A stretch of 64,000 nucleotides of DNA from a virus, in IMG/VR virus record IMGVR_UViG_3300042914_003164, positions 1 to 64,000 of that record. One strand, written 5' to 3'. The translations under genes were made by a program, and so were the position numbers. The notes under the pieces are model-generated. The model ran no database searches. It saw only the letters and a program-made list of their open reading frames with translations, and was not told the origin of the DNA. Within the stretch, counting starts at the first letter, position 1, and every line of letters starts with the position of its first letter. Shown here one piece after another: positions 1-35,456 of this stretch.

Positions 1-45
1 ATCGCGCAAGAACTAAGTTTCTTTCTTAATCATTCGATCCGAGAG

Positions 46-288
46 ATGGAAGACCTGAAGCAGAGAGGCTGTATTACAGACAGGCTCTATGGACATTATT
101 GCTGGTTTTGGTTGTGGTCTGCTCACAGGCACGACTTTAGACATGAAACCCTATACAACAAACGCGGTGGCGAGTTTTACTGGCGCCGAATCAATAGGGT
201 GCAGCGCCTAGTCGAGAAGATTGGAGCCTTCAGGATGGAGTTTGACAGGAAAGACGTTCCCTTTGGACTTGGCACTTTGAACCCATGA
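46..288 (+). CDS. hypothetical protein (may start upstream of the window)
   Basis: ORF ends in ATGA overlap with next ORF. Confidence 0.55.
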   Translation: MEDLKQRGCITDRLYGHYCWFWLWSAHRHDFRHETLYNKRGGEFYWRRINRVQRLVEKIGAFRMEFDRKDVPFGLGTLNP

Positions 289-455
289 AAGACTGGAAAC
301 CCGCAAGCAAGATAGACCTTGCAGCCTTGGAGGACAGACTTCCACCCTCCAAGAAGCTTGTTACAGCTTGGATACCTGGAGTTGGTGCAGTTTACAAGGT
401 AGTTCATACAGGCCACAAGCGCAACTTTAGACGTAAACCACCCGTTGTTTATTGA
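285..455 (+). CDS. small hypothetical protein (56 aa, not in ORF track)
   Basis: Hand translation MKDWKPASKIDL...PPVVY*; coupled to neighbours. Confidence 0.5.
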   Translation: MKDWKPASKIDLAALEDRLPPSKKLVTAWIPGVGAVYKVVHTGHKRNFRRKPPVVY

Positions 456-456
456 C

Positions 457-615
457 ATGCCATCAACTTACGACGTTGTGAGATTGGATGACGAAGGCTG
501 CTGGCAAACCCTGTTGTCAAACGTTGACTACAACAAAGCAGACATGGAAGTTGATCGCTACACCGATCAGTTTCCTAGCGCATGTATTGACATTCTACCC
601 CACAAAGGCAAATGA
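457..615 (+). CDS. small hypothetical protein (52 aa, not in ORF track)
   Basis: MPSTYDVVRLDDEGCW...HKGK*; ATGA overlap with 612 ORF. Confidence 0.6.
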   Translation: MPSTYDVVRLDDEGCWQTLLSNVDYNKADMEVDRYTDQFPSACIDILPHKGK

Positions 616-1088
616 CTACCAAGACTCAACAGGTTGAACTTTACGTCTTTGACCCCAAGCCTGTGACTCAACACAGCATAGGCATTTACACACAGATGAA
701 ACCTTCTGTAGGCAACCCAGAGGTTTATGTCTGCGTCTACACAGGTCAGACTCTGGAGGCTCTGGTCTCGGAAGGGGAAGTCTCGCCAGAGGCGTTCCTG
801 TGCCCCTTGGAGGAGGCTGCAGCCAAGAGTCGAGACCTTGCCCGCCAGAGGCTGTGCAAGGGACCTCAGAGGGTCACGCGGGAACGCTGGTGGGAGCTAC
901 TTGAAGTGCTGTTCCCTGCACGTTGGGAGAACACACCTGAAGGTGAAATCTTCATGGTGCCGGAATGTATCACGGGCTGTCTTTACACTTTTGGAGTTCG
1001 CATCGGTGAAGATTACTTCTCGATCACCGAAGACTGCGACATTGAAGCTGCAAAGCTGATTGCTATGTGTAAGGAGGCCATGTCGTGA
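612..1088 (+). CDS. DUF1419-like hypothetical protein
   Basis: C-terminal pattern 'WWELLEVLFP..W...FMVPECITG..YTF....EDYF' resembles DUF1419. Confidence 0.55.
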   Translation: MTTKTQQVELYVFDPKPVTQHSIGIYTQMKPSVGNPEVYVCVYTGQTLEALVSEGEVSPEAFLCPLEEAAAKSRDLARQRLCKGPQRVTRERWWELLEVLFPARWENTPEGEIFMVPECITGCLYTFGVRIGEDYFSITEDCDIEAAKLIAMCKEAMS

Positions 1089-1267
1089 TACTTACTTTCA
1101 ATCCAATTAACTGTTCTTGGGAGGTTTCAGACATTGTAGGCTCAGTGCGTGTAAGCAAGACCTACTATGGCTACACGAAAGATGAAGTAATTGAAGACTT
1201 CAGAGCCTTCATTAGATATACAGAAGACCCAAGTTACGAGCCTGAAGACATTACGGTAAACAGATGA
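1085..1267 (+). CDS. hypothetical protein
   Basis: GTGA/ATGA overlaps at both ends. Confidence 0.6.
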   Translation: MILTFNPINCSWEVSDIVGSVRVSKTYYGYTKDEVIEDFRAFIRYTEDPSYEPEDITVNR

Positions 1268-1638
1268 AACGTATCGACTTAGGTTCAGTGGAGTCTGCAG
1301 ATTCGTTCTGCAAGATGCTTGATCTTCAAGGGGTTGATTCACGTATCAAGTCTTCATCCCAAAGACTTGTTAATCGGATCAACGAGGATCTTGGCTGGAA
1401 CATCAAAGGCAAGGGTTCACAGGTCTTTGCTTTTTACTTGCATCTTCTAGCCAAGAACTTTGTTTCTTTCTGCTTGACAAGTGACGATGGGCTTAAGTCA
1501 GGTTACAAGCTGTGTGTTGAAAGCTGCTATCGAAACATTAAAGATAGTCAGCTGTTCATTGAACATGCTCACTTAATCGAACTTCCAAGCTGGATCCCTA
1601 AGTCACCTTCATTTATTCAACGACATGGAAACCGCTAG
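1264..1638 (+). CDS. hypothetical protein
   Basis: Coupled ORF in + operon. Confidence 0.6.
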   Translation: MKRIDLGSVESADSFCKMLDLQGVDSRIKSSSQRLVNRINEDLGWNIKGKGSQVFAFYLHLLAKNFVSFCLTSDDGLKSGYKLCVESCYRNIKDSQLFIEHAHLIELPSWIPKSPSFIQRHGNR

Positions 1639-1900
1639 AGATTACCTCCGAGACCTTGCACGTTCAACTCAGGACTTTACAACCAAGTGGATCATAGATG
1701 GGATCTTCTGGGCTGATGAATCGTGCCGCATAAGCGGAACCATGAGTCTTGCACTGCGTAACGCAGATGCTGCAGCTGGCAGGAGGTTGCTTGATCACTT
1801 GCTGGTTAGCGGTGTTGATACGCAGGCTGAAGTTCCCAGGTTCCTGAATAGATACTCTTCTACTTGCTTGAACCTTCTATCTCCTGTCGAGCAAGTCTGA
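1625..1900 (+). CDS. hypothetical protein
   Basis: Coupled ORF in + operon. Confidence 0.6.
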   Translation: METARDYLRDLARSTQDFTTKWIIDGIFWADESCRISGTMSLALRNADAAAGRRLLDHLLVSGVDTQAEVPRFLNRYSSTCLNLLSPVEQV

Positions 1901-1977
1901 TCTCTGCACTTTGCCATCTTGACAGATGGTTTCCTGCAGGGCTTATTCAACCCTGTTAAACTCTACACTTCAGGTAA

Positions 1978-2448
1978 ATGGTTTCAATCTCTGGCGTCAC
2001 AAGCGATCCCGCAGACCTTACAGTTGTCAGCACGGATGGCTCTCACTTTGGAGCATCAAGCGCATACCTTGTTGACCTGACAAGTGCAACTAAATACAAG
2101 GTAGACGAGTTCGTGAAAGGGACGGACTCTGAACGTCGTGATTTTGCACACTCACACGGAGTTCGGTTGCTGGATATTCTCTCCGGCGAGGAAGCACCTT
2201 TTGTCAGCCAGGCTGTGCTTTACAAGTTTGACGGCGAAAGCTTCTTCGATGAAGATGAAGCGCACCCAGGCTACACTTACGCACTTCCAAGTTTTACTGG
2301 CAGATTCTGGGTGTGTGATTGCTGGATTGTAAACGAGCAAGGCGAGAGGCACCCGGATTACGACGTTGCACCTGTGCCTCTGACAGCTTGCAACCTTGAG
2401 CCTGTAGGTGACAACCCGTGGATCGCAAGTGTGCTGAATCAGGACTGA
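1978..2448 (+). CDS. hypothetical protein
   Basis: 156-aa ORF with structured leader. Confidence 0.65.
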   Translation: MVSISGVTSDPADLTVVSTDGSHFGASSAYLVDLTSATKYKVDEFVKGTDSERRDFAHSHGVRLLDILSGEEAPFVSQAVLYKFDGESFFDEDEAHPGYTYALPSFTGRFWVCDCWIVNEQGERHPDYDVAPVPLTACNLEPVGDNPWIASVLNQD

Positions 2449-2597
2449 TAGCTGTAGCTGAATAGCTCAGACTTTGTAGGTTGCGGTAGGGCTGAGTTTG
2501 TGGGCTCGGCCCGCCTAACCCTGTAGGAAGCCAGCGGACTTTGCGGTTAAGCATTCCTTATGTTATGGGATCTGGGCTACTTTGTAGCGGGATTGTG

Positions 2598-2606
2598 TGC
2601 TATAAT
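2598..2606 (+). promoter_or_regulatory. extended -10 promoter (TG-C-TATAAT)
   Basis: Perfect TGnTATAAT 70 bp upstream of ATG 2676. Confidence 0.6.
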
Positions 2607-2675
2607 TTGGGAGCTGGGGAAGTTGTAGGCTTGCCTGCCCCCAGACTTTACACTCTACACTTTACACTTGCTGCT

Positions 2676-2984
2676 ATGACAAGCGACACCTTCTACGCTC
2701 ATGCTTGCAGGATTGTTGAGAACTTCAACTTCCTCAAGGTTCAAAAGATGATGGCTGCAGTTGATTGGAACTGGGGCGGACCTTACATGAATGGAGAGTT
2801 TGGACCTCCCACTGTTGACGCTATGAAGTCCAATGCAATGCACTTACTACTTCAAGCCAAGACGCTGGACACTAACACTTCGGCTGGTGGCTTCCAAGCC
2901 TATTGGGTGAGACAGGGAGACGTTGCAGGTTACAAGGGCAACGGCTACATCGGACTTCGGTTCATTGGAGCTGAGACTTACTGA
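2676..2984 (+). CDS. hypothetical protein
   Basis: Start moved to ATG 2676 (MTSDTF...) downstream of promoter; 'NFNFLKVQKMMAAVDWNW' phage-type motif. Confidence 0.65.
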   Translation: MTSDTFYAHACRIVENFNFLKVQKMMAAVDWNWGGPYMNGEFGPPTVDAMKSNAMHLLLQAKTLDTNTSAGGFQAYWVRQGDVAGYKGNGYIGLRFIGAETY

Positions 2985-3033
2985 GTTCATAGTCTGTAGT
3001 TCACTATCGACACCAACCCTGCACTTTACAGCA

Positions 3034-3666
3034 ATGAGCGACCTAGTTTACCTCAAAGACCTGCCAGGCTACATCAAGCCGGAACAACCGGCTGCACCTT
3101 GCAAGCCACAGCCCAAGCCTCTCTGTGAGGCACTTGCAACAGCAGAGGTTCCAGTTGAGCCGCTGCTACCTTGCACCAAATGCAAGGGAGATGGATACCT
3201 GTTCAGCGAAGGCTACAGGTACACACGAGATGATGGAACACTGAGAGTTTACGAGTCAGAGTGGAAACCCTGCATGTACTGCGATGGAGTTGGCTGGTTC
3301 CACGCACCAGACCTTGCAAGTTTGGTGAAAGCGGTTAATGGCCGCAAACCCCGTACCCTGCGGTCAAAGAGACCAGATGATACACGCGCCTACTTTGTAT
3401 GGCGTATGGCAAGGTTCCACGGTGGAAAGGATGTCTGCTTGCCGATGGCTGCAAGTTGCGACATTGCAGGTGATCCCTACGAGAACGTACTTGACCAGTT
3501 GGCAACCATCATTGCCAAAGCCTATTTCGGTAGTGGCAACGTTGGAGTTGCAAGATGGCAGCAAGCGATATATGGAAGTCACAGCTTCAAGGATGTACCT
3601 GCTGTCATTGATGGTCCTGTTTACGACAGTGACAAGCCTTTAGAAGAGATGTTGGAGGCTGTCTGA
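3034..3666 (+). CDS. protein with DnaJ-type CxxCxGxG zinc-finger motifs
   Basis: CTKCKGDG and CMYCDGVG motifs; start at ATG 3034. Confidence 0.6.
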   Translation: MSDLVYLKDLPGYIKPEQPAAPCKPQPKPLCEALATAEVPVEPLLPCTKCKGDGYLFSEGYRYTRDDGTLRVYESEWKPCMYCDGVGWFHAPDLASLVKAVNGRKPRTLRSKRPDDTRAYFVWRMARFHGGKDVCLPMAASCDIAGDPYENVLDQLATIIAKAYFGSGNVGVARWQQAIYGSHSFKDVPAVIDGPVYDSDKPLEEMLEAV

Positions 3667-3673
3667 TCTAGGA

Positions 3674-3737
3674 TTGTAGTTTGCAAGAGTACCGGAAACT
3701 TGCGGCACTTTACACTCAGTTTTTTATTGCTATGACT
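3674..3737 (+). repeat. intergenic leader repeat copy 1 (hairpin, loop AGTACCGGAAA)
   Basis: ~63-bp near-identical to 4093-4155. Confidence 0.85.
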
Positions 3738-4085
3738 TTCCGAGTTTACGCCAACAAAGGCTTCCAGATTGTACTGCCAAACGGCTACGAGATAAGCTGC
3801 ATGTTCGGATTTCTAAACTACTGTCAACACCGCAATGATGATAGTTTGGTGCAAGGCTGCATCACTACAAACTGTGGCGAGCTGAAGTCTAAAGACTGCG
3901 AGATTGCAGTTTACGACCCGAATGGTTACAGCGTCGGAGGCTGGCCAGGCTGCTCTGCCATTGAGGGTGTTGCAGGTTGGCAGTCTGTAGATAACTTGTT
4001 GAACGTTATTGATTACGTTCGCAACCTTACGCCGCCCCGCTCAGAAGTTGTTGACACTGAAGACTACTGTGAAGAGCATTACTGA
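3732..4085 (+). CDS. hypothetical protein
   Basis: ATG 3732 sits at the same position in the repeat as ATG 4150; 'KGFQIVLPNGYEISCMFG..NYC' phage-type motif. Confidence 0.7.
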   Translation: MTFRVYANKGFQIVLPNGYEISCMFGFLNYCQHRNDDSLVQGCITTNCGELKSKDCEIAVYDPNGYSVGGWPGCSAIEGVAGWQSVDNLLNVIDYVRNLTPPRSEVVDTEDYCEEHY

Positions 4086-4092
4086 CCAGAGT

Positions 4093-4155
4093 TTGTAGTT
4101 TACAGGAGTACCGGAAACCTGTAACATCCTGCACTCAGTTTTTATTGCTATGACT
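4093..4155 (+). repeat. intergenic leader repeat copy 2
   Basis: See copy 1; compensatory stem changes. Confidence 0.85.
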
Positions 4156-4554
4156 ACGAACACAAAGGCTAAGAGCTTAACACTGAAAATTCCAAGCGGA
4201 TTCTATGCAGTTCCGATCACGGAAGATCAATGGAGGCAGTTCATGGGTTCGGAACTTGAGGATCGTCATTGCAAGATGGAGGCCGTAGGTTATTGGTCGG
4301 TTCCCGTAAAGTACACAGCAATCGCTGTTTCCTACACTTGGAAGAATAACTTTATGGACACGATCACCTTGTATGGTGAACGCACAATGTCCAGCTTGAA
4401 ACGGTGCGGCTACGACATGGAAGGCAGAGTTTTCGTTGACGGAAAGAAGTTCAGAGGTTTTACTTCTTCTCAGTTGTTTGAACTTCCTGATGGTAGATTG
4501 CTTGACGTTGCGGTGATACACGTTTGCGCTAAAGAGCCTGAAGTTACTTTTTGA
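4150..4554 (+). CDS. hypothetical protein
   Basis: 134-aa ORF following repeat. Confidence 0.7.
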   Translation: MTTNTKAKSLTLKIPSGFYAVPITEDQWRQFMGSELEDRHCKMEAVGYWSVPVKYTAIAVSYTWKNNFMDTITLYGERTMSSLKRCGYDMEGRVFVDGKKFRGFTSSQLFELPDGRLLDVAVIHVCAKEPEVTF

Positions 4555-4557
4555 ATT

Positions 4558-4767
4558 ATGGCAGCTTTACCTCAAGTCGAGCAACTCTCTAGCTTCAGAA
4601 AGATACTCTTTGCAGGTCAAAGGGTCACAGTTGAGAGGACGCAGCGCAGTGTTACAGGTTACTGCGTTGTAGGTTGGGAGAGTGGTCTACCTGTTGCAGC
4701 TAGGCCGATTACAGCTCAGAAGATAAAGGCTTTACTTAAAGCTTACCCAAACCACACTTTGATCTGA
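4558..4767 (+). CDS. hypothetical protein
   Basis: Tightly packed in operon. Confidence 0.6.
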   Translation: MAALPQVEQLSSFRKILFAGQRVTVERTQRSVTGYCVVGWESGLPVAARPITAQKIKALLKAYPNHTLI

Positions 4768-4768
4768 C

Positions 4769-5107
4769 ATGACTATCACTATCGAAAAAAAGTTCGAGCC
4801 TTCCGACCGCTACAGGTTTGACTGTGGACTCCCACGCCACTTTGCACAGATTGACACTTGCCAAGATGCAAGTTACTACGGTAACTGGGCAAGTGCTGAA
4901 GCTCTGACTTTGATAAGTTACTGCGAGGGAGACGTGACTACAACAGTCTGCACAACAAAGGAGGAGTTTGCGGCTGAAGTCAACAAGCTCAAGGACTTCT
5001 CTAACCGTATGGATTACACCTTCAAGGGAATAGATCCAGGTTTTCATCACACAGACGAGATCCTGCAACCTTGGAGAGATTGCGGTCTAGCACACCTTAT
5101 TCACTGA
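4769..5107 (+). CDS. conserved hypothetical protein of mobile elements
   Basis: 'DRYRFD...FAQIDT.QDASYYGNW...ISYCEGDV' motif. Confidence 0.65.
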   Translation: MTITIEKKFEPSDRYRFDCGLPRHFAQIDTCQDASYYGNWASAEALTLISYCEGDVTTTVCTTKEEFAAEVNKLKDFSNRMDYTFKGIDPGFHHTDEILQPWRDCGLAHLIH

Positions 5108-5112
5108 ACCCA

Positions 5113-5391
5113 ATGGACAGCACCTTCATGCCTGGAACTACTAATTTGCAGCAGGCTAATCGTAAGTGGTTGCTTGCACAGAACATTAAGGCTGCAGTTG
5201 ACATTCCAGATGGTTGCAGGAGGTTTTACATGCTAAACCCAAGGGAAAAGAGTTTGGAGGTTTGTAGGTCACATGGCGCAGATCATTGCGCCTACGAATG
5301 GGGACCACAGATTGACCCTAGATGGAATCCCAAGCAGATTGAAGCTTACATCTCTGGATACTGTAACATCGCTCTTGACTCCAATGTTTAA
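5113..5391 (+). CDS. hypothetical protein
   Basis: Start at ATG 5113; operon packing. Confidence 0.55.
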   Translation: MDSTFMPGTTNLQQANRKWLLAQNIKAAVDIPDGCRRFYMLNPREKSLEVCRSHGADHCAYEWGPQIDPRWNPKQIEAYISGYCNIALDSNV

Positions 5392-5704
5392 GCTCTACTA
5401 CTTTGTTGATTACAAGACGGATGAAGGCGAGCCGGAACCTTATACGGTTGCCTTTGACATCGTTGAAGGTGATGCCCGACACATTGAAGATTATGTTTAC
5501 GAGGGAAGTTTCTTAACTTTGTTGGATGCACAGGATAGGATGAATAATCGAGGTAGTCGATGGTTCTTTTATCCTAATGCTTGTATTACAGAGGTTGTAG
5601 GTGACAAGGAGGTACTTGTTGGTATCTATCTTCAAAGTGGTGTTAATTACGAGTTATCACCTGAGGAGTACGAAGCTTTGAGGGAGGAAGCTGTATGTTG
5701 TTAG
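5384..5704 (+). CDS. hypothetical protein (acidic)
   Basis: Start at ATG 5384; followed by terminator. Confidence 0.6.
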   Translation: MFKLYYFVDYKTDEGEPEPYTVAFDIVEGDARHIEDYVYEGSFLTLLDAQDRMNNRGSRWFFYPNACITEVVGDKEVLVGIYLQSGVNYELSPEEYEALREEAVCC

Positions 5705-5737
5705 TTTGACTTTGTAGATTAAAGTTTGCACTGTATT

Positions 5738-5766
5738 GGCCGGTGTTAATTCACTGGCCTTTTTTA
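5738..5766 (+). terminator. rho-independent terminator
   Basis: GGCCGGTG-ttaatt-CACTGGCC then T-run. Confidence 0.8.
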
Positions 5767-5819
5767 TTGCCTGTTGTAGGTCGATGTTTGTGTGTTAGAG
5801 TTAGGAGGCAATTGATCGG

Positions 5820-6668
5820 TTGTTGACCGTGCCAGAAGGGAATCAGGAGCTTCAAGGCAGTGACTTTGAAGGTGATGACTTTGAAAATAATGCCGCAGAC
5901 CTTGAAGATTCTATCGCAGATATTGAGTCTTTATTGACTGATGATCTCGGCATTGATGATGGTACTTTAGATGGTATTGATGAAAGTTTGAACCTTAATG
6001 AGTATGGAGAGATTGAAGACGAATTTGTAGTAGACACTAACGATGATAATACTGTAGATGTTAATAGTTCTAATCTTGAAGATCAAACCCCTACATTCCA
6101 AAGCACCAATATCTCACACCCTGCAAACCCAACCCAAAACCCCTCTACCTCTTCACTTGTTAAAACGTGGTCTAAAAGATCGAAACTTGCACCTAATGAG
6201 ACGGATAAAGAATTTGAGATGTTCAAAGTTTACTGTATGTATGGAAGTGGTCGTTCTCACCAATATGTATCCCAGATTACAAACTTTGGACTCAGCACAA
6301 TAAAGATTATAGCACAGCGGAACCAGTGGAGCCGTAGGTCAGGGGACTATGACAGATGGCAGCTTACCCGTAAGATAAAGGAAGCGCAAACTTCCAGGCA
6401 CGAGGAGCACATTAAGAAGCTGGAAGTTTACAGGGAGGAACAGGAAGCACTAGGGAAGCAGCTAACGTTAAACGCTGCACGTATAGCATTCTTAGCAAAC
6501 TCTACACTTGCAAAGATGCTAGACGAGGAGAAGACTCTTGACATGAGGGATGTTCCTGGTATCTTGAATACAGCAGCAAAGCTTGCAGAAGTAGGTAAGA
6601 ACTTGCAAGGTACTGCACTGGGAGTTGATCAGTTGTTAAGTGCTATAGAAGAGTCAGAGGTTGACTGA
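5820..6668 (+). CDS. terminase small subunit-like HTH protein with very acidic N-terminus
   Basis: 'W..R..PNETDKEFEMFKVY..G.GRS ... W.RR..DYD' followed by a coiled coil, a TerS-like pattern. Confidence 0.5.
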   Translation: MLTVPEGNQELQGSDFEGDDFENNAADLEDSIADIESLLTDDLGIDDGTLDGIDESLNLNEYGEIEDEFVVDTNDDNTVDVNSSNLEDQTPTFQSTNISHPANPTQNPSTSSLVKTWSKRSKLAPNETDKEFEMFKVYCMYGSGRSHQYVSQITNFGLSTIKIIAQRNQWSRRSGDYDRWQLTRKIKEAQTSRHEEHIKKLEVYREEQEALGKQLTLNAARIAFLANSTLAKMLDEEKTLDMRDVPGILNTAAKLAEVGKNLQGTALGVDQLLSAIEESEVD

Positions 6669-7056
6669 AGAGGCTGCGCCCACTTCTAACAGCCCGAAGC
6701 CCACACATAGAACCGCTTACGCGGGATAGATTAAATCGGGTTTGTACTGACTGAGGGTTTGCGGGAAGGCACTTCGTTGTTGTAGTTTGCAGGTTGTAAG
6801 GGTTTTTCAGTGGTCAGCCTAACGGCTGTTTTATTTATAGGTTACATCTAGTACATGGATACTTCACACCTCGCAGACTGGACCCGGATTTTCGGTTTTT
6901 GGCTGTTTATTTCCGTACTTACATATATTATTAGGTATAAATGGGGACAAGGCTAGGTAGCTTGCGCCGCAGTGCTTCTACTTTATGATCTCATAACGGA
7001 CACGTTGTATTCATCAAGGCTATGACTGCGATCTCGAAATGTAACAGAAAATAACA

Positions 7057-7094
7057 GGGTAGTTTCTACCCACCCAATCGGGTAGTTTCAACCC
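7057..7094. promoter_or_regulatory. tandem palindromic operator-like sites
   Basis: GGGTAGtttCTACCC (7057-7071) and GGGTAGtttCAACCC (7080-7094), just upstream of wHTH gene. Confidence 0.6.
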
Positions 7095-7113
7095 CCCACC
7101 TCAGAGGCTGCTT

Positions 7114-7599
7114 TTGACACCTTCAATCAAGCCACTTCACACCCTGATCGCCTCAGACATGCCAGGTTCACACCTGAAAATCATGTTCTTACTCGTTGAT
7201 ATGTGCAATGATTGGGGCTTTACAACAGAGTCTTATGGTTCACTATCAGAAGTATTTAACTTAAACAAGGACAACCTACGCAAGAGGGTAAACACACTTA
7301 TCAAACAAGATATGCTGAAGATCGTAAGCTACAACGGCAGGAAAGGTTTGATGGTTAATCCCATATACTGCAACGATAAACCTTTGCATCTTAAAGAATT
7401 TAGAGAAGCGCTCTGGGAGAAAGAGCTAATACTTACACGTTACAAGCCTAGACACTTCTATGGACCTCCATTCATGGAAACCCAGGAGCTAGCATTTGCA
7501 GCAGTCAAGAGATCGTACAATGGATCCAAACACCCCAAAGAAAGAACAAGACGAATTATTTGCAGGTCTTTGGAGGCAGCAAAAACACGTCAGAGTTAA
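7114..7599 (+). CDS. winged-HTH, replication-initiator (RepL)-like protein
   Basis: 'SYGSLSEVFNLNKDNLRKRVNTLIKQDML....LMVNP' wHTH plus MVNP motif. Confidence 0.45.
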   Translation: MTPSIKPLHTLIASDMPGSHLKIMFLLVDMCNDWGFTTESYGSLSEVFNLNKDNLRKRVNTLIKQDMLKIVSYNGRKGLMVNPIYCNDKPLHLKEFREALWEKELILTRYKPRHFYGPPFMETQELAFAAVKRSYNGSKHPKERTRRIICRSLEAAKTRQS

Positions 7600-7780
7600 A
7601 TACTTCAAACTTAAAGAGGACAGTGGAGATATTGCATCTAGGGATCAAGCATTCAGGGAGATGAACAATTTCTTCATTCATGAAGTAGATTACAGTTTCA
7701 GCCCTGAGACTTCAATCGTTGACAGATCACTTCCTAAAGGTTCAATCCTTGATGCCATACGCAAAAGTTGTAAAGATTAG
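7520..7780 (+). CDS. hypothetical protein
   Basis: ATG 7520 after GGAG-containing region; ends at first GCCATTCATG repeat. Confidence 0.55.
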   Translation: MDPNTPKKEQDELFAGLWRQQKHVRVKYFKLKEDSGDIASRDQAFREMNNFFIHEVDYSFSPETSIVDRSLPKGSILDAIRKSCKD

Positions 7781-7921
7781 CCATTCATGCCTGACACTAA
7801 AGGATGCCGCGGCCATTCATGATACACATTCAACCTTGAAAGCTGCATTCATGAAAACGCCATTCATGACATGACACCAGGAGAACGCCATTCATGATAG
7901 GATGCAGATTAGCCATTCATG
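7780..7921 (+). repeat. iteron-like direct repeats GCCATTCATG
   Basis: Exact copies at 7780, 7812, 7859, 7887, 7912; variant at 7845. Confidence 0.85.
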
Positions 7922-7928
7922 ATGACAC

Positions 7929-8152
7929 CTTAGACGTTGCACCTTAAAGATTACAGTTTAGACATTCAACCTTAGACTTTGCACTTTATACGTTACAGCT
8001 TAGAGGCTATACATTAAAGGCTGTACCTTGAACCTTGCACTTTGCACCTTATACATTAAAGCTTGCACCTTATACATTAAAGGCTGCACTTTGTACTTTG
8101 TACTTTATAGGCTAGACTTTATAGGTTAAAGCTTGTAGGTTCAAGTTTATAG
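7929..8152 (+). repeat. phased degenerate heptamer array (32 x NYTNNAS), decaying to ~8650
   Basis: cttagac gttgcac cttaaag attacag tttagac attcaac ... gttcaag tttatag; 224 bp with no indel. Confidence 0.9.
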
Positions 8153-8656
8153 TTCACTATCCCGCACGTTATACTTTGCAGGTTGCGCTTTGCAGTATGT
8201 AGCTCACACTATGTAGCGTCTAGTCTGAGGTTCAGGCTTTACACTTTATGGGCTGCAGGTTGCAGGCTACAGGCTAACCTTAAGGACCAGACTTTATAGT
8301 AAGCAAGTTATACTCCAAGGCCTGCAGATCGCAGGCTGTAAACTATAGTTCACTATCCCGCCAGGTATAACTTAATAGGAGAGAATCAGACTTTATAGGT
8401 TCCTGCCTGCACTGACAGACTAGGTGCAGGCTTCTGTAGGTTTGCTGCCGGTAGTTTGGAGCCTGCCGGCTAACCTTAAAGGCTGGAGAATGCGCGAGCT
8501 TAGGTGATGCCAACCGCTCACACTTTGTAGGTTTGGCGGTGATAAAGCGTAGGCTTGGGTTTGCGACACTTTGCTAATTATCGTAGATTCTGGCCGCAGC
8601 AGCTGAGACTTTATAGGTTAACTGTCTGCAGAATCTACAATTGATCAAACCTTGAA

Positions 8657-8728
8657 TGTTACGGTTCCGTAACAATTGGGCGGATTTGGGCTGATAGGTT
8701 GCCAGTTGGCCGACTTTGCGCTTAAGAT
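8657..8728 (+). promoter_or_regulatory. palindrome plus sigma70-like promoter
   Basis: TGTTACGG-tt-CCGTAACA (8657-8674); TTGCCA-N18-TAAGAT (8699-8728). Confidence 0.45.
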
Positions 8729-8780
8729 ACTTTCAAGCGATCGGACCCAAACCTTTAAACCGACCGCCCCCCCTAGGATC

Positions 8781-9419
8781 ATGACAAGCGCCAACCAAAA
8801 GCCCGCACCTAACCAAAAGGGCGGACCCGTCAAGATTGGACAAGCAGATGTTGAACTGCTGGCGTCCGGTGATTTTGCCGCCGCGCTTGCTGCCGCAGTG
8901 TGGGAGCCTCCTGCCCGTGACAAGGCCAGCAAGGGCAGCGGAGACGGCAAGCGCGCTGCGATGCCGATCCTATGGCCAGAGGCCATCAGGACCGCTGCTA
9001 ACGCCCTACAGCCCCCCATGGAACTGCCAGACCAATTCCCGAGCGGTAAGGCCAAGATGCCCGGACAATTGGCGTCGTTCCCCAGCAAGGAAGCGATCAT
9101 AAATGGTTGCCTTGATCGCCCAATTCCGGCCAAGTTGGAGAAACGAACAGACGTGCAACTAGCGCTATTGCTTGACGTTGCACATGGTAAGTACGGGGCC
9201 TTCCGTTTTCCTGCCATGTCTGAGGGTTTCAGACTTCCGCTTGCAAACTTGCTGGAGATCCTGAAGCGCCACCCCAGAACATATAAAGAGAATGTAGCGA
9301 TGCAAAAGCTGCACAACTCCGGCGCAACTTGCCTTATGGCTAAGATCGCAAAAGTTACCGGGCGGATTGTTGCCATGGATCCCGACTTCCAACTTTATCT
9401 GATAGACACTGAATCCTGA
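8781..9419 (+). CDS. hypothetical protein, stand-alone unit between heptamer arrays
   Basis: AGGA-TC-ATG at 8781; own promoter and terminator. Confidence 0.65.
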   Translation: MTSANQKPAPNQKGGPVKIGQADVELLASGDFAAALAAAVWEPPARDKASKGSGDGKRAAMPILWPEAIRTAANALQPPMELPDQFPSGKAKMPGQLASFPSKEAIINGCLDRPIPAKLEKRTDVQLALLLDVAHGKYGAFRFPAMSEGFRLPLANLLEILKRHPRTYKENVAMQKLHNSGATCLMAKIAKVTGRIVAMDPDFQLYLIDTES

Positions 9420-9504
9420 ATCTATACTTTGCCCTTTGCAAGTTGCCTATGGTTTAAACTAGTGGTTTCGATAGCTTAATGGTCTGTCCAAGTAAAGAGG
9501 TTTC

Positions 9505-9534
9505 AAGGCTAGGCTTTATCGCCTGGCCTTTTTT
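9505..9534 (+). terminator. rho-independent terminator
   Basis: AAGGCTAGGC-tttatc-GCCTGGCCTT then T-run. Confidence 0.8.
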
Positions 9535-9539
9535 GTGTC

Positions 9540-9616
9540 TTTATACTTTATACTTTACAGGCTACACTTTACAGGTAATAAGCTACACCTGGGGGCCTAT
9601 ACTTTGCAGGTTATAT
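9540..9616 (+). repeat. second phased heptamer array
   Basis: tttatac tttatac tttacag gctacac tttacag (gtaataa) gctacac (ctggggg) cctatac tttgcag (gttatat). Confidence 0.8.
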
Positions 9617-9817
9617 GTTATGGGGGGTGGGGGAGATTGTGAGGTGTAGTTACTCACCCCCCACTCCTGAAATTTTTTTTCAATACCAGCCTCAAAGCAC
9701 TTTACAAATCATACACTTACCACTCCCCCTGAAATTTTTTTTCATTCCCCATCCAGAACACCTTACAACTTATTTACTTACAGCTCCCATAATTTTACTC
9801 CCTATCCCAAGCCGACA

Positions 9818-26011: not shown

Positions 26012-26584
26012 TCAGCCTAGCTTGATCCTGCCAAAAGCTGCCTCTTTACTTTTTCTTTTGCATTCTTCAATGGCCTGTGTAAAAGCCTCGCAGTGCCTTG
26101 GATTTTTAAGGTTGACAACCAGTATTCCATGTGCTTCAGCAATCCGTATTGCTTGGCCAGTGCCGCCACTTGCTTTTCCGTCTGGCGTCCAGCAAATTAT
26201 CAAATCCGCTGGAGTTTCAAGATCGGGTCCCAGTACCTGAAAAGCGTTACGAGCCATCAGCCGCCTACCAAAAGAGGAAAGCGCTGCTGGATTTGGATGG
26301 TATTCATCAACTGTTGCAAGTGCTGCCTTGAATGCTGGTAATGTGCTTGCATCAATGCAGCCACCCTGACCCGCAGCATTGTCACTGAACAGTCCACTAG
26401 GTAGATAAATACATTTATTTTTGCTTGATTTGACTCCGCGCTGAAAAGCTGCATCCATGCCTGGGGCGCCGCCACTGCGAAGCCTCCAACCACCATTTTC
26501 CATTGCGCTGGCGATCAAGCGTGCAAGCTTTAAGGCATCAGGTGGAGCCTTTCTTGAGCCGATGCCAGCGTATATTTTGCTCAT
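26012..26584 (-). CDS. SLOG superfamily (DprA/Smf-like) protein
   Basis: YAGIGSR, LRSGGAPGMD, ICWT, GGTGQA motifs. Confidence 0.75.
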   Translation of the reverse strand: MSKIYAGIGSRKAPPDALKLARLIASAMENGGWRLRSGGAPGMDAAFQRGVKSSKNKCIYLPSGLFSDNAAGQGGCIDASTLPAFKAALATVDEYHPNPAALSSFGRRLMARNAFQVLGPDLETPADLIICWTPDGKASGGTGQAIRIAEAHGILVVNLKNPRHCEAFTQAIEECKRKSKEAAFGRIKLG

Positions 26585-26591
26585 TGCGCAC

Positions 26592-27152
26592 TTAGTTTTC
26601 TGGAGTCGCCAAGCAGCTGTCATGCGACCTGTCCCGTGCTTCTTGCCTCAACTCTTGAAATCTTTGGTTGCCGATTTCCTTGGTGACTAGCTCCATGAAA
26701 ATTCCAAGCTCTTGTTTCCTAGGAGAAATTGCACTGTTAATAGCTCCGTCAATCACCTTGGCGGACTCGCTCTCTGGCGTGTCATTTTCAATAAGTTTTT
26801 GCCGAAGCTCCTCCAGTAGTTCAGGCGTTTTTGAGATAAATCGAAGCCCCTTCTCTTCTTGCAGGCCGTACATGAAGGCTTTTACAGCCTTGTATTTATA
26901 GGTTACACGCTTTAGCCAAAGCTTGTCCACCCGCTCACCATTCTTAATCTTTTCGTGAGCCTCCGCTTTTACAAGACTGACTGAAACTATTGTATTCCGG
27001 CTTTCGGAAATCAAGAAGTCAATATCTTTGTCAGATAGCTCACTAACATCTGCAAGATCGTAGAGCTTTTGACGCAGATTGCTGAAAAACCTGATTTCAC
27101 GTCCGACTGCTTTGTAAGCTGGGTCTGGCACAGTTTTTGAAGCTTGTTCCAT
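26592..27152 (-). CDS. hypothetical protein
   Basis: 186-aa ORF in - block. Confidence 0.65.
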   Translation of the reverse strand: MEQASKTVPDPAYKAVGREIRFFSNLRQKLYDLADVSELSDKDIDFLISESRNTIVSVSLVKAEAHEKIKNGERVDKLWLKRVTYKYKAVKAFMYGLQEEKGLRFISKTPELLEELRQKLIENDTPESESAKVIDGAINSAISPRKQELGIFMELVTKEIGNQRFQELRQEARDRSHDSCLATPEN

Positions 27153-28200: not shown

Positions 28201-28595
28201 AGCGGCGTCCCTCAGGTTTTGTCAATAGATTTGAGTTTGATGATGTCGTGCTCTCTGGTAAACCGGAGCCTGTTCTTCTGGTCGAGTCTTTGCTAAGGTT
28301 GAGTCACCTGCTCAACCCGTACCGCGAATTGCCTGATGAAAGACAGCCCGCCCGCCTCAAGAGACAGGGCCGAAGTCATGTTTCTGTCTAGGTTTGCCTC
28401 CGGTGACAGCTGCCATGTCGAGCGAATTTGTAGCCGCGTGAACTTTGTTCTCAGCAAGCAGGGCGGCTCGGCTGAAGTCTTTTCAGCTCTTTGGAGTTTT
28501 GATCACTGGAATCCATTTTACTGGATTCCCCGTCCACCTGTTATTCCGTGCTCCCTTTTGCAACTTGTAGAGCGTCGTATGAAAGGTGTTATGCC

Positions 28596-31001
28596 ATGGC
28601 AGTGAAACCATACCGTTGCACAGTCATCTCCTGGGATGTTAATCACAACTGCTTGGGGCGAGCACATCTAATTGCCCAGACAGCTCAAAAGCTCTACTCA
28701 CATGTCGATCTTATTGGCTTTGGCTTTACTCATATTTCGGATACGGTGTGGCAGCCGCTCGGAGAGGCTTCTGTTACGTCACTGCCTGAGCCAAAAAACA
28801 CAGAAGATTTAATTCGCATTTGTAGTCGAGTATCAAGCAAAATACAGACCGACCTAGTTATCGCTTGCAAGGCTAGACTACCTTCTTTGCTGCTTGGCTA
28901 TTGCATCAAGCGCAAGACGGGCTCTCGCCTAATTGTTGACATTGATGACTACGAACCATCTTTTGTTGCAGGCGCTCCAGAGTCGAAACTTTTTAAGCGC
29001 ATGACAGCGCTTGAGCTACTGCAAGAGCTGCCGAAGCATATAGAAGAACCTCCGTACTCACCTTTTTGGACCGTGGTTGCACAGGAAGTGATTTCCTGCG
29101 CCGATGGAATTACTACTTGCGATACCCCATTGCAATCAATGTATGGAGGCGAGGTAATACCGCATTTGCGCGATCCAAATCTTTTTGCGGAACCCCCAAA
29201 GCCCCTGCCTAGTGAACTTGAGGAGGCTCGCAAGAAAAACGGTTCAATTGTAATGTTTCTTGGGACGCCGAATCGACACAAGGGAGTCGTTGAGATCGCA
29301 AAAGCCTGCCAACAAATTGAGGGAGTTGCCCCAGTTTATATTGGAACTATTGCCGACAGGGGAGTTGAGAATGATATTACAAGATCATGCCAAAAAGCTG
29401 TTTTAATAGAGAGCCTGTCTTTTGACCTAGTGCCGTCTTGCGTAAGGCAAGCTGATCTAGTGGTTTTGCTTCAAAACGTTAAATCTGTAGCAAGTGCCTA
29501 CCAGTTGCCAGCGAAAGCCTCTGATGCGTTGGCCGCTGGCGTTCAAATTGTAGCCTCGCGCACAGAACCTATGGCAATGCTTGTTGACATGGGTTTCAAG
29601 GGGATTACTCTGATTGAGTCCGCCGATGACTTAACCCCTGCAATCAAGGCGACAATTGGCAGCCCCTTAAGCAAGGCCGACAAAGAGTACAACCTTAAAC
29701 TTTTCGCTAAAACGCTTTCATTTGATGCTGGCGCGGAAACCATGAAAAAACTGTTGTTACCACCAGTTAAGCACAGCGTTAGTGGGATTCTGGATGCCCT
29801 GCTAAATTTCAAAAAAAATTCAAGAAAAAAGATTGTTGTCGTTTTCTGGAAACAAAACGACTTCGGCGTTTTTGGTCGAAGAGTCGATATGGTAGTAAAG
29901 TATCTAGCATCCAGAAGCGACATATCTCGTGTGATCGTCATCGAGAAACCTGTTTCAACTCTTGATCTTAAGCGCTACAAAAACAGTTCAAATTCTCATT
30001 TTAGGCTAATCTATAAATTTATCCAAAAAAAACGAGCCGGTCTATTAGATACTGACAAGATTTCGGTCTGGACCCCATTGATGCCACCTGGGCTGGACTT
30101 GGCTCAGCAAAAAGATTTTATACTAAAATACTGTAAGGATGCTTTGCAAGAGGCTCTTGTGGATTTGCCTGGCTCCTTCGTTGGTGCCTGGGTTTACCCT
30201 CATTTTCGTAATGCCGTCGAAATACTGGATAGTCTGCCTTTTGATCATGTCGTGGCTGACATCGTAGACGACCATAGAGCCTGGCCCGGCACAAGTGAAG
30301 AAAAGAAGAGGGAACTTACAGAGCAGTATGCGCAAGTCCTTGGAAAAAGTGATTGCAGTGTTTACAACTGCAAGCCTGCAATGAATTCCATTGGCAAGCT
30401 GTCAAGCAAGCCGACTCACCTTGTTCCGAATGGAGTTGATGTTGACCTTATCTATAAGGGTGGCCCTAAGGTAGAGGAGTTGAGGGAGTCCTTGGTTTCA
30501 CCGGGGAACTGGCGCTACATAATTGGTTATACCGGAAATCTCGAAAGTAAAATCAACTGGCCACTTGTCGAACACGTAGCCGACAAAAACAAAGATGCCT
30601 TGGTGCTAATGATTGGCAGCACTCACATGGCGGAAAATCTGCCACAAAGGCCAAACATTAAATACATTGGCCCCGTTTCCTACATGCACCTGAAGCTGTA
30701 TTTGCAGGTTTTCGATGTTGCCATTATACCACACATAACAAATGATCTAACAGAAAACATGAATCCTCTTAAGAGCTATGTTTATGCGACACTTGGTATT
30801 CCAATAGTGGCAACAAATTGTCCGAATATGCCGCAATTGCCGCAGATTCGCATGGTTGGCCAACATGCTAGATTCGCAAAGCATGTTAGATCGGCTATAG
30901 TAAAAGATCAAAATCTTTCCGCAGAGGAGATACATGCAATAATGAAGGCCCACTCCTGGGAAAGTAGACTCAAGGATCTTGCTGATTCATTCTACAAATA
31001 A
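28596..31001 (+). CDS. double-domain GT-B (GT4-like) glycosyltransferase
   Basis: Domain 1: VDIDD, MFLGTP..HKG, P.K..DALA.G; domain 2: PNGVD, GYTGNL, FDVAIIP, NPLK.Y.Y...G.PIV. Confidence 0.8.
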   Translation: MAVKPYRCTVISWDVNHNCLGRAHLIAQTAQKLYSHVDLIGFGFTHISDTVWQPLGEASVTSLPEPKNTEDLIRICSRVSSKIQTDLVIACKARLPSLLLGYCIKRKTGSRLIVDIDDYEPSFVAGAPESKLFKRMTALELLQELPKHIEEPPYSPFWTVVAQEVISCADGITTCDTPLQSMYGGEVIPHLRDPNLFAEPPKPLPSELEEARKKNGSIVMFLGTPNRHKGVVEIAKACQQIEGVAPVYIGTIADRGVENDITRSCQKAVLIESLSFDLVPSCVRQADLVVLLQNVKSVASAYQLPAKASDALAAGVQIVASRTEPMAMLVDMGFKGITLIESADDLTPAIKATIGSPLSKADKEYNLKLFAKTLSFDAGAETMKKLLLPPVKHSVSGILDALLNFKKNSRKKIVVVFWKQNDFGVFGRRVDMVVKYLASRSDISRVIVIEKPVSTLDLKRYKNSSNSHFRLIYKFIQKKRAGLLDTDKISVWTPLMPPGLDLAQQKDFILKYCKDALQEALVDLPGSFVGAWVYPHFRNAVEILDSLPFDHVVADIVDDHRAWPGTSEEKKRELTEQYAQVLGKSDCSVYNCKPAMNSIGKLSSKPTHLVPNGVDVDLIYKGGPKVEELRESLVSPGNWRYIIGYTGNLESKINWPLVEHVADKNKDALVLMIGSTHMAENLPQRPNIKYIGPVSYMHLKLYLQVFDVAIIPHITNDLTENMNPLKSYVYATLGIPIVATNCPNMPQLPQIRMVGQHARFAKHVRSAIVKDQNLSAEEIHAIMKAHSWESRLKDLADSFYK

Positions 31002-34052: not shown

Positions 34053-35456
34053 GTGCCGGGAAGAACGAGGGCGAACGCTTACATAGACAGGGCCGCAGTG
34101 AGAGGTCTTGGCCTACTTTCCGATCCAACACTGCTGCAGAAGCTAAAGCGGAGGTCGAATACCACATTCGATGTAGATGCGGCAGAAGCTCGCATGGTTA
34201 ATAACCTACTTCCCTATCAGAAAGATTTTGTATGTGACTTTGATCATAAGTATGTAGGTTTCTGTGGGGGCTATGGCTCAGGTAAGAGCTATTCCCTTGT
34301 TGTAAAACAATTACTTTTATGTTTCCGGTCTCAGGGTTTTACACATCTCTTTCTTGAGCCGACCATTCCACTGATTGATGACGTAGCGCTTCCGACTTGG
34401 AATCTTGTACTTGAGAAGTACGGGATTCCCCACTCGTTCAGGGTGTCTCCGCGTCCGGTCTTCACTCTACATCTTCCCGGCGGGGAAACCCCTGTGCTCT
34501 TGCGCTCGATGGAGAACTTTGAGCGCCTGATTGGTGTGAACGCCGCATCTATTGCATCAGACGAGACAGATACTACAAGGGCGGAAATTGCCGAAAAGGC
34601 GATGATCAAACTGCAGGGTCGTGTTCGTGTTGGCAACTGCCCTCAAATTGTAGCTGCATCTACGCCAGAAGGATATGGCTGGATGTACTCGTTTTTTGAA
34701 GAACAAAAAGCTGACAACAAAAAGCTTTACAGGGGCAAGTCTGAGGACAACCCATACCTAGATCCAGGATTCGTGGAGGATCTCAAAACGAAGTATCATC
34801 CGCAGCTGATTAAGGCGTACCTGAATGGAGAGTTTGTCAATCTTGAGTCGGCAACTGTGTTTTATGAGTTCAACCGCGAACTCCATACGACTGGTGTTTT
34901 TCTTCCAGAAAAGGGCGAAAGAATTGTATTTGGAGTTGACTTCAACGTTGGTCAGTGCCACGCTGTTTACGGAGTTGTAAGGCCGGGGCAAAAGGGTCAG
35001 CAGCTCCATTGCTTTGCGGAATCGAAAGTCGCGGACACTTTTGCTCTGGTCGCACATTTGCAAAAGACATACCCATTCCATCTGTCAAGAGGGAAAATCA
35101 CCTGCTACCCAGATGCCAGTGGATCCCACGATTCAACATCCTCTACCCAGAGTGATCATGAAATTCTCAGATCCGCTGGTATCCAGGTGGTGACTGAGCG
35201 CAGGAATCCGCCCATCGCGGAAACACTTGCACATGCCAATGTTCACATGCACCGTGGACTGGTTTTGATCAACCCGACGACATGCCAGAGCACCATAAGC
35301 GCGACCGAGCGATGGTCTTACGATTCTAAAACGCTCAAGCCCGCAAAGGGTGGTGCTACTGATTACTCACACCCAGGAGATGCTCTTAGGTATCTGATTT
35401 GGCAAGTATTCCTACGGGCTGGTGCAAGAGCTGGTCACGGTGGTCGCTGGCGTTGA
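34053..35456 (+). CDS. terL: terminase large subunit
   Basis: Walker A GGYGSGKS, Walker B ASDE, STPEG, DNPYL, nuclease GVDFN and HPGDALRY. Confidence 0.92.
   Translation: MPGRTRANAYIDRAAVRGLGLLSDPTLLQKLKRRSNTTFDVDAAEARMVNNLLPYQKDFVCDFDHKYVGFCGGYGSGKSYSLVVKQLLLCFRSQGFTHLFLEPTIPLIDDVALPTWNLVLEKYGIPHSFRVSPRPVFTLHLPGGETPVLLRSMENFERLIGVNAASIASDETDTTRAEIAEKAMIKLQGRVRVGNCPQIVAASTPEGYGWMYSFFEEQKADNKKLYRGKSEDNPYLDPGFVEDLKTKYHPQLIKAYLNGEFVNLESATVFYEFNRELHTTGVFLPEKGERIVFGVDFNVGQCHAVYGVVRPGQKGQQLHCFAESKVADTFALVAHLQKTYPFHLSRGKITCYPDASGSHDSTSSTQSDHEILRSAGIQVVTERRNPPIAETLAHANVHMHRGLVLINPTTCQSTISATERWSYDSKTLKPAKGGATDYSHPGDALRYLIWQVFLRAGARAGHGGRWR

Follow-up and report, generated by a model that had tools for sequence, protein, structure and literature searches.

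The locus described here raises the question of why the same short words recur, on one strand only, through both the genes and the gene spacers of a phage genome. It lies in the left part of bases 1 to 64,000 (hereafter the window) of a 109,690-bp viral record of IMG/VR (IMGVR_UViG_3300042914_003164), and the phage is referred to as G000. An initial annotation of this DNA had reported that words of the type YTRYAS are frequent over the left region and sparser later. Counting bore this out: the plus strand contained 20 to 44 YTRYAS per 2 kb in 1–10 kb and approximately 2 to 13 in the rest of the window, and the minus strand was flat. The examples quoted in that annotation (around 136, around 2647, and 5161–5220) were all present. 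The recurring words were real, but the unit consists of in-phase runs of a 7-base repeat, N-T-T-R-N-A-S, found on the plus strand only, rather than of isolated hexamers. Likewise, enrichment within the first ~9.8 kb was recovered but was not confined there. The enriched zone comprises 1 to ~9,600 together with 104.4–109.7 kb of the full record, and since it is present at both record ends, it represents one block of about 13–15 kb that wraps around them.

A phased heptamer overlaid on coding sequence

Autocorrelation at a lag of 7, which uses no motif, gave z values of 2.2 to 11 from 104.5 kb through the record end and base 1 to approximately 10 kb, whereas only one marginal window was obtained in the remaining ~91 kb. 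The enrichment is thus not uniform across the genome. A position weight matrix (PWM) trained solely on the non-coding array at 7929–8145 gave 11.3 matches/kb in the coding DNA of 1–7.7 kb, compared with 3.7/kb in control genes. Heptamer density was 11.0/kb in coding and 13.3/kb in intergenic DNA, and the 9-mer ASNTTRNAS occurred 149 times in the window versus 59.6 ± 7.9 times in dinucleotide-preserving shuffles.

The dispersed copies also kept the register in their flanks, with A at position −2 in 58% (versus 27%) and T at position +8 in 51% (versus 29%), and their spacing peaked at 7, 14, 21, and 42 bp. Across the zones of eight phages, which together make up 77.5 kb, in-phase enrichment was 3.3-fold for TTRNAS, 9.7-fold for ASNTTRNAS, 13-fold for TTRNASNTT, and 33-fold for the 12-mer ASNTTRNASNTT, while one-mismatch variants of the motif were enriched just 1.3- to 2-fold. 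Enrichment that multiplies with in-phase length is a prediction of cooperative multi-unit binding.

The initial annotation had interpreted the words as a regional DNA-level code laid over codons, with peaks at 7.9–8.6 and 9.5–9.6 kb, and had called for codon-preserving shuffles and an examination of reading-frame independence. In the left zone, 64 sites were observed versus 37 ± 5 after synonymous-codon shuffling (z 4.9) and 30 ± 5 after codon-order shuffling (z 6.5), so that the excess survived both. The same shuffles gave z values of 3.8 to 4.7 in the right-hand part of the zone and −1.5 to 1.2 in three control gene sets. In G001, the related phage described below, they gave 8.9 to 9.9 for PWM matches and 11 to 19 for ASNTTRNAS. 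Approximately 70% of matches started at codon position 1 in the zone and in the controls alike; therefore, the enrichment is about threefold in each reading frame. These shuffles, the non-uniformity, and the conservation in relatives uphold the interpretation as a regional code over codons.

Heptamer sites in aligned genes were retained in G001 in 17 of 45 cases (38%), compared with 7 of 54 (13%) in control genes matched for nucleotide identity (Fisher p = 0.005). Where the amino acids were identical, the same codon was used at 54.3% of positions in the zone and at 43.6% in the controls (p = 3e-7). These two signatures, site retention and synonymous conservation, appear consistent with purifying selection on the pattern. 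Furthermore, shared protein families carried 4.05 ASNTTRNAS/kb in the clade with the zone and 0.67/kb in terS relatives without it, and therefore the overlay is not a by-product of the proteins. The code is one-stranded, phase-coherent, independent of codon usage and protein family, and conserved in at least nine phages.

All credible genes of the zone are on the plus strand. Minus-strand open reading frames (ORFs) in the zone (177–458 and 2655–2843; 26146–26871 in G001) were rejected as genes, since each shadows a gene of the plus strand; the plus-strand frame stays open in three phages, and its third codon positions carry the most substitutions. A high heptamer count inside the terS of all relatives was likewise rejected as overlay, since it consists of scattered Leu-Gln, Leu-Glu, or Leu-Asn codon pairs and has no phased runs.

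The block is internal in a related phage and syntenic with that of G000

G001 is a 51.6-kb contig whose portal protein is 77% identical to that of G000, and the orthologues of the ORFs in 1–7780 are 36–77% identical between the two. In G001 the block is contiguous and internal, at 18.6–34.8 kb, and the two ends of the G000 record map to adjoining parts of it. The zone starts directly after the dNMP-kinase gene in both phages. Its density in G001 climbs toward the arrays (e.g., GTTGCAC ×11) and drops abruptly after them.

The initial annotation had suggested that the zone may mark a first-injected or terminal segment and could match a terminal repeat. No end repeats were found in the full 109,690-bp record, for which the CheckV completeness is 100%. 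In addition, contigs from other lakes extend beyond base 1 and span 5690–8711 intact. Given these contigs and the contiguous block in G001, the zone lies at a left end only because the record happens to be cut there, and neither suggestion is supported. In four independent runs, contigs covered 5601–9600 at 1.3- to 2-fold the depth of either flank, most likely because co-occurring strains share the module rather than because of a terminal repeat. As for a T5-type first-step-transfer arrangement, the record has no repeat of the block, and the depth of 1–4.8 kb was not doubled relative to 9.6–12 kb, although a collapsed repeat would escape this comparison.

An alignment-based scan of viral contigs yielded 40 loci. 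Eight of them, with terS 53–67% identical to that of G000, had the zone; in these its peak was always 1–2 kb past terS, where the zone always ended in tandem heptamer arrays. It was not seen in the relatives with 40–52% terS identity among the 40 loci, nor near terS in the cultured cyanosiphoviruses S-CBS2 and PSS2. The overlay appears to have been added to genes already present in a single clade of freshwater phages. Near-identical DNA is present in lake and freshwater metagenomes of 19 studies, and a megablast search of GenBank phages gave no nucleotide match to bases 1–10 kb.

The module from terS to the arrays (5690–8711) is nearly identical across strains, and the genes upstream of it differ. 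The gene content of the block also differs strongly between G000 and G001. ORFs of G000 that are specific to the clade lie at 612–1088, 1625–1900, 2541–2984, 4150–4554, and 4558–4767. Contigs of variant strains in other lakes diverge exactly at intergenic heptamer runs or at a 16-mer element described below (window positions 2663, 2984–3033, 4092–4119, and 5685–5728). Four of seven independent breakpoints lay at most 5 bp from an in-phase run (permutation p = 0.023), to which assembly artefacts could contribute. In-phase runs may also act as joints for recombination or be co-opted as such.

Arrays and the control region downstream of terS

The arrays in which the zone ends follow terS and a RepL-like ORF. 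The features of the left block and of this region, all on the plus strand, are as follows.

1–7780, plus strand: left portion of the gene block that carries the heptamer overlay, with small ORFs, terS, and the RepL-like ORF (PWM, lag-7, and shuffle tests)
2999–3015, plus strand: intergenic element copy (G)TTCACTATC, ~37 nt 5′ of the ATG at ~3046; a variant form of the 16-mer shared across the clade, TTCACTATCCCGCAAC
5820–6668, plus strand: terS homologue (PHROG 6299, E 3.8e-13; tblastn 2e-17 to S-CBS2 terS, also to PSS2 and S-CRES1-3)
7114–7599, plus strand: RepL/HTH_36-type winged-helix ORF (PHROG 428, E 1.4e-5)
7780–7921, plus strand: five GCCATTCATG boxes starting at 7780, 7812, 7859, 7887, and 7912, and a sixth without the leading C (GCATTCATG, ~7845)
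7929–8145, plus strand: array 1, 31 contiguous indel-free N-T-T-R-N-A-S heptamers with 21- and 63-bp super-periods
8152–8167, plus strand: 16-mer box GTTCACTATCCCGCAC between the arrays
8166–8345, plus strand: array 2, in a looser heptamer register, with GGTTGCA and GGCTACA units
8348–8363, plus strand: second 16-mer box GTTCACTATCCCGCCA
8380–8650, plus strand: decaying heptamer register with repeated AGACTTTATAGGTT words
8676–9419, plus strand: conserved GC-rich ORF 3′ of the arrays, no assigned function, heptamer density at background
9505–9533, plus strand: intrinsic-terminator-like hairpin and T-run
9535–9610, plus strand: mini-array of ~11 heptamers (TTTATAC, TTTACAG, GCTACAC, and others), immediately 3′ of the terminator
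9666–9788, plus strand: 61-bp repeat in two copies with CCCC..GAAATTTTTTTT, forming the right edge of the control region

The 31 units of array 1 are diverse, and only the period and four to five positions are constant. In some relatives the arrays are homogeneous (GTTGCAC ×11–23; AGGTTAC ×27). (G)CCATTCA boxes, irregularly spaced and in 5–10 copies, follow terS across the whole terS family (40–67% identity), and in loci L013–L051 they lie ~0.7–1.1 kb past terS; they are likely a protein-binding site of an ori or pac region. In all relatives the order after terS is CCATTCA boxes, a second repeat block, and a CCC..AAATTTTTTT repeat. The second repeat block is made up of heptamers in the clade and of 17-, 21-, 27-, or 48-bp AT-rich repeats in other relatives. 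Repeats equivalent to 9666–9788 occur ~2.4–2.6 kb past terS in relatives (L005, 13232–13278; L024; L027), and in distant relatives, too, the control region ends with repeats of the CCC(A/C)C..AAATTTTTTT(CCC) type.

The terS homologues numbered 128. In G000, terS and terL (34053–35456) are separated by a gap of ~27 kb that holds a 17-kb minus-strand gene cluster, whereas the two genes abut in S-CBS2 and PSS2. In the atlas comparison, the ORF at 7114–7599 gave a feature score of 0.94 (174 shared) and TM values of 0.54–0.60 to RepL clusters, and it is a candidate replication initiator. In G001, an unrelated ORF replaces it at the same position. The atlas search gave nothing usable for the ORF at 8676–9419, and single-protein locus scans with this ORF and the one at 7114 yielded no loci. 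No Rfam match was found in 1–11 kb. The succession of terS, RepL-like ORF, CCATTCA boxes, and arrays is probably an origin and/or packaging-recognition region.

The 16-mer element, (G)TTCACTATC with the clade consensus TTCACTATCCCGCAAC, occurs on the plus strand only and in every clade locus. Its sites are intergenic gaps ~25–40 nt before start codons and the space between arrays, always with heptamers on both sides; further copies are found at genome positions 106374 and 109257 and in L005 at 2828, 6305, and 12348. The extended form is (G)TTCACTATC(CCGCAAC), which in relatives is often followed by a CCGCAAC...GTTGCGG hairpin. The element holds the TCACTAT core of T7-type promoters.

A proposed reader of the heptamers and alternative explanations

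We tentatively propose, at somewhat less than even confidence, that the heptamer is a platform for a polar, cooperatively binding protein that occupies one unit per heptad and nucleates at the arrays of the control region. N-T-T-R-N-A-S would be a cis-acting, strand-polar recognition unit, read in steps of one heptad. Seven base pairs correspond to 240 degrees of the helix, and three units therefore make two turns, which fits the 21-bp super-period of array 1. Nucleation would take place on the non-coding arrays in the region of terS, the RepL-like ORF, and the CCATTCA boxes, and from there the protein would spread one way over the adjoining 13–15 kb of small accessory genes, using short in-phase runs of at least two heptads inside and between genes. 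The block might then be handled as a single unit, e.g., for timing or silencing, coating, or hand-over to replication or packaging. We infer the protein reader, the reading of DNA rather than RNA, the nucleation and spreading, and the biological outcome. The abrupt right edge of the strand-specific zone at the arrays, seen in G000 and eight relatives, argues for this proposal. Several points weigh against it. Among the zone ORFs, Pfam and PHROG scans found no ribbon-helix-helix (RHH), helix-turn-helix, or similar protein besides the RepL-like ORF, and this ORF lacks conservation within the clade; a divergent RHH would be missed by such scans. Simple binding to double-stranded DNA needs no uniform orientation over 15 kb, which points to a directional process instead, and the density gradient in G000 is weak. 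With every credible zone gene in plus orientation, the motif strand is also the mRNA sense strand, and reading at the RNA level has to be considered as well.

Under such an RNA-level signal, which we regard as unlikely, an RNA-binding protein or ribonuclease would act repeatedly at the heptamers of sense transcripts, and the arrays would form an untranslated tail; programmed short mRNA life, or a sponge, would be a similarly unlikely outcome. In its favor, the motif is restricted to the coding strand of a fully co-oriented block and equally enriched across frames, a 7-nt step is typical for single-strand binders, and the stretch separating the arrays from the last gene showed nothing resembling a terminator. 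The junction A-S|N-U-U also resembles the RNase E preference RN|WUU, but that preference alone leaves the purine at position 4 and the A at position 6 unexplained. Reading at the DNA level is favored because the array slot of distant relatives is filled by ordinary 17–27-bp DNA repeats beside the CCATTCA boxes, and because the mini-array at 9535–9610 comes right after a strong terminator-like hairpin and another such hairpin (5738–5759) lies inside the zone. Folding of the array RNAs was uninformative, as z values of −0.3, −1.2, and −0.8 indicate that they are neither unusually open nor structured. A signal for packaging or ejection is rather improbable. The arrays would lie at or near a pac or cos site recognized by TerS, and the polar heptamers would be read by the translocating machine; a block that is packaged last and ejected first, or packaged first, is just as improbable. 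A translocase suits the strict polarity, terS lies 1.1 kb 5′ of the arrays in nine of nine phages, and CCATTCA boxes follow terS family-wide. The lambda cosQ site is 7 bp long, and in T7 arrays of CCTAAAG, a word that fits N-Y-T-R-N-A-S, adjoin the terminal repeat and are followed by a TCACTAT promoter, like here. Nevertheless, the record has no terminal repeat, contigs pass base 1 and bridge the arrays intact, the T7 words come every ~13 bp and without a coding overlay, and cyanosiphoviruses with homologous terS have no zone.

It is still less probable that the co-oriented runs and the 16-mer are linkers, i.e., dispersed short homology for inversion-free cassette swaps between related phages. 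The very different gene content of the block in G000 and G001 and the proximity of strain breakpoints to in-phase runs agree with this explanation, but assemblers can break contigs at repeats, heptamer density is similar in coding and intergenic DNA, and synonymous conservation within genes points to constraint acting on the sequence itself and not to second-order evolvability. Non-adaptive spread, in which gene conversion or template switching copies fragments of slippage-prone arrays into nearby DNA, where they decay, is very improbable. The very homogeneous arrays of some relatives do show ongoing slippage, and heptamer density is highest beside the arrays; against this stand the retention of aligned sites together with synonymous-site conservation, an array 1 that keeps only the pattern over 31 diverse units, and a one-sided zone whose extent and start are syntenic between G000 and G001. 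An artefact of composition or codon usage in a block of lower GC content is scarcely credible. The block is slightly richer in AT (GC 0.43–0.50), one-mismatch variants show a small excess, and shuffled zone genes still have ~1.5- to 1.8-fold the control density. However, counts exceed both synonymous and codon-order shuffles with z values of 4.9 to 19, the lag-7 signal and the 33-fold enrichment of the 12-mer are not accounted for, and homologous genes in relatives lack the overlay.

Comparison with known repeat systems

The omega repressor of plasmid pSM19035 binds one dimer per non-palindromic 7-bp unit and needs at least two adjacent heptads. Its operators and parS sites have ~7–10 units in direct and inverted orientations, lie only upstream of promoters, and are wrapped by a protein helix around the DNA. 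The resemblance lies in the contiguous indel-free 7-bp units, 31 of which are found at 7929–8145 and 11–27 in relatives. In contrast, the omega word is WATCACW, no omega-like RHH gene was found among the zone ORFs with Pfam or PHROG, from which a divergent RHH would escape, and no overlay on coding sequence comparable to these 15 kb is known for omega. The stoperators of mycobacteriophage L5 and its relatives are specific asymmetric 13-bp sites read by the immunity repressor; like the heptamers, they are spread as asymmetric copies over kilobases of a phage genome and co-oriented with transcription. They are mostly intergenic, unphased, and genome-wide, whereas the heptamers described here are degenerate, phased, mostly intragenic, and limited to one block.

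The first 340 bp of T7 contain CCTAAAG 11 times on the plus and 0 times on the minus strand, ahead of the phiOL promoter. These polar SRL/SRR words fit N-Y-T-R-N-A-S, although a word would do so by chance about one time in ten, and array 1 includes the units ATTAAAG, CTTAAAG, and GTTAAAG. T7 differs in its single fixed word at ~13-bp spacing, which stays within ~340 non-coding bp at a real end of the genome and has no coding overlay, and G000 has no terminal repeat in its record. A PF00940 scan for a T7-type RNA polymerase gave no match in G000, but control genomes were equally silent. We know of no explanation for the function of the T7 SRL/SRR arrays, and the overlay may help to explain polar heptamer arrays at T7-type genome ends.

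Iterons are 17–22 bp long, few in number, and extend over ~100–300 bp; the lambda ori lies inside gene O and P1 oriL inside repL. Direct repeats at the gene of a candidate winged-helix initiator and putative binding sites within coding sequence would be shared features, but the heptamer clade as a whole does not conserve the RepL-like ORF. Chi, KOPS, and SRS are single specific 5- to 8-mers with a long-range strong strand bias, as in the heptamer block, and are read by a directional machine; they are unphased and genome-wide and switch at ori and ter, whereas the heptamers are phased and occupy one block.

Where codes overlap in coding DNA, they tend to be short and local; examples are iterons within the gene of an initiator and individual operator sites. 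The phased 7-bp pattern described here appears to constrain synonymous sites over ~15 kb and some 30 genes. No description of such an overlay was found in the literature, and the sole related report concerns contiguous heptamer repeats in Nostoc, the partner of which is unknown. It is possible, though doubtful, that this degenerate phased code in ~30 genes is an undescribed form of genomic addressing, whereby a polar, filament-forming reader treats 13–15 kb as one object. That reader might, with the same reservation, be a protein acting on DNA, on a single strand, or on RNA and nucleating from the arrays in the terS and ori-like region. The clade of uncultured, abundant lake phages that has the overlay and the sister lineages that have the same genes without it provide a natural contrast for segment marking without protein change, and the arrays and the 16-mer offer a handle for finding the reader.

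Gene content of G000

G000 is a tailed phage, with genes encoding TerL (34053–35456), a portal protein, DnaB, ThyX, RtcB, a dNMP kinase, and a sigma-70-family factor of its own. An ORF of 2,677 amino acids is taken as a putative tape-measure protein from its size and position. The nearest cultured relatives of G000 are cyanosiphoviruses, with a portal identity of just 24–26%. An 817-amino-acid ORF (28548–31001) was rejected as a polymerase because it is a double glycosyltransferase. This protein with two glycosyltransferase domains co-occurs with ThyX and the dNMP kinase (genome positions 76579–77325 and 103757–104323), and the gene set could lead to modified DNA bases.

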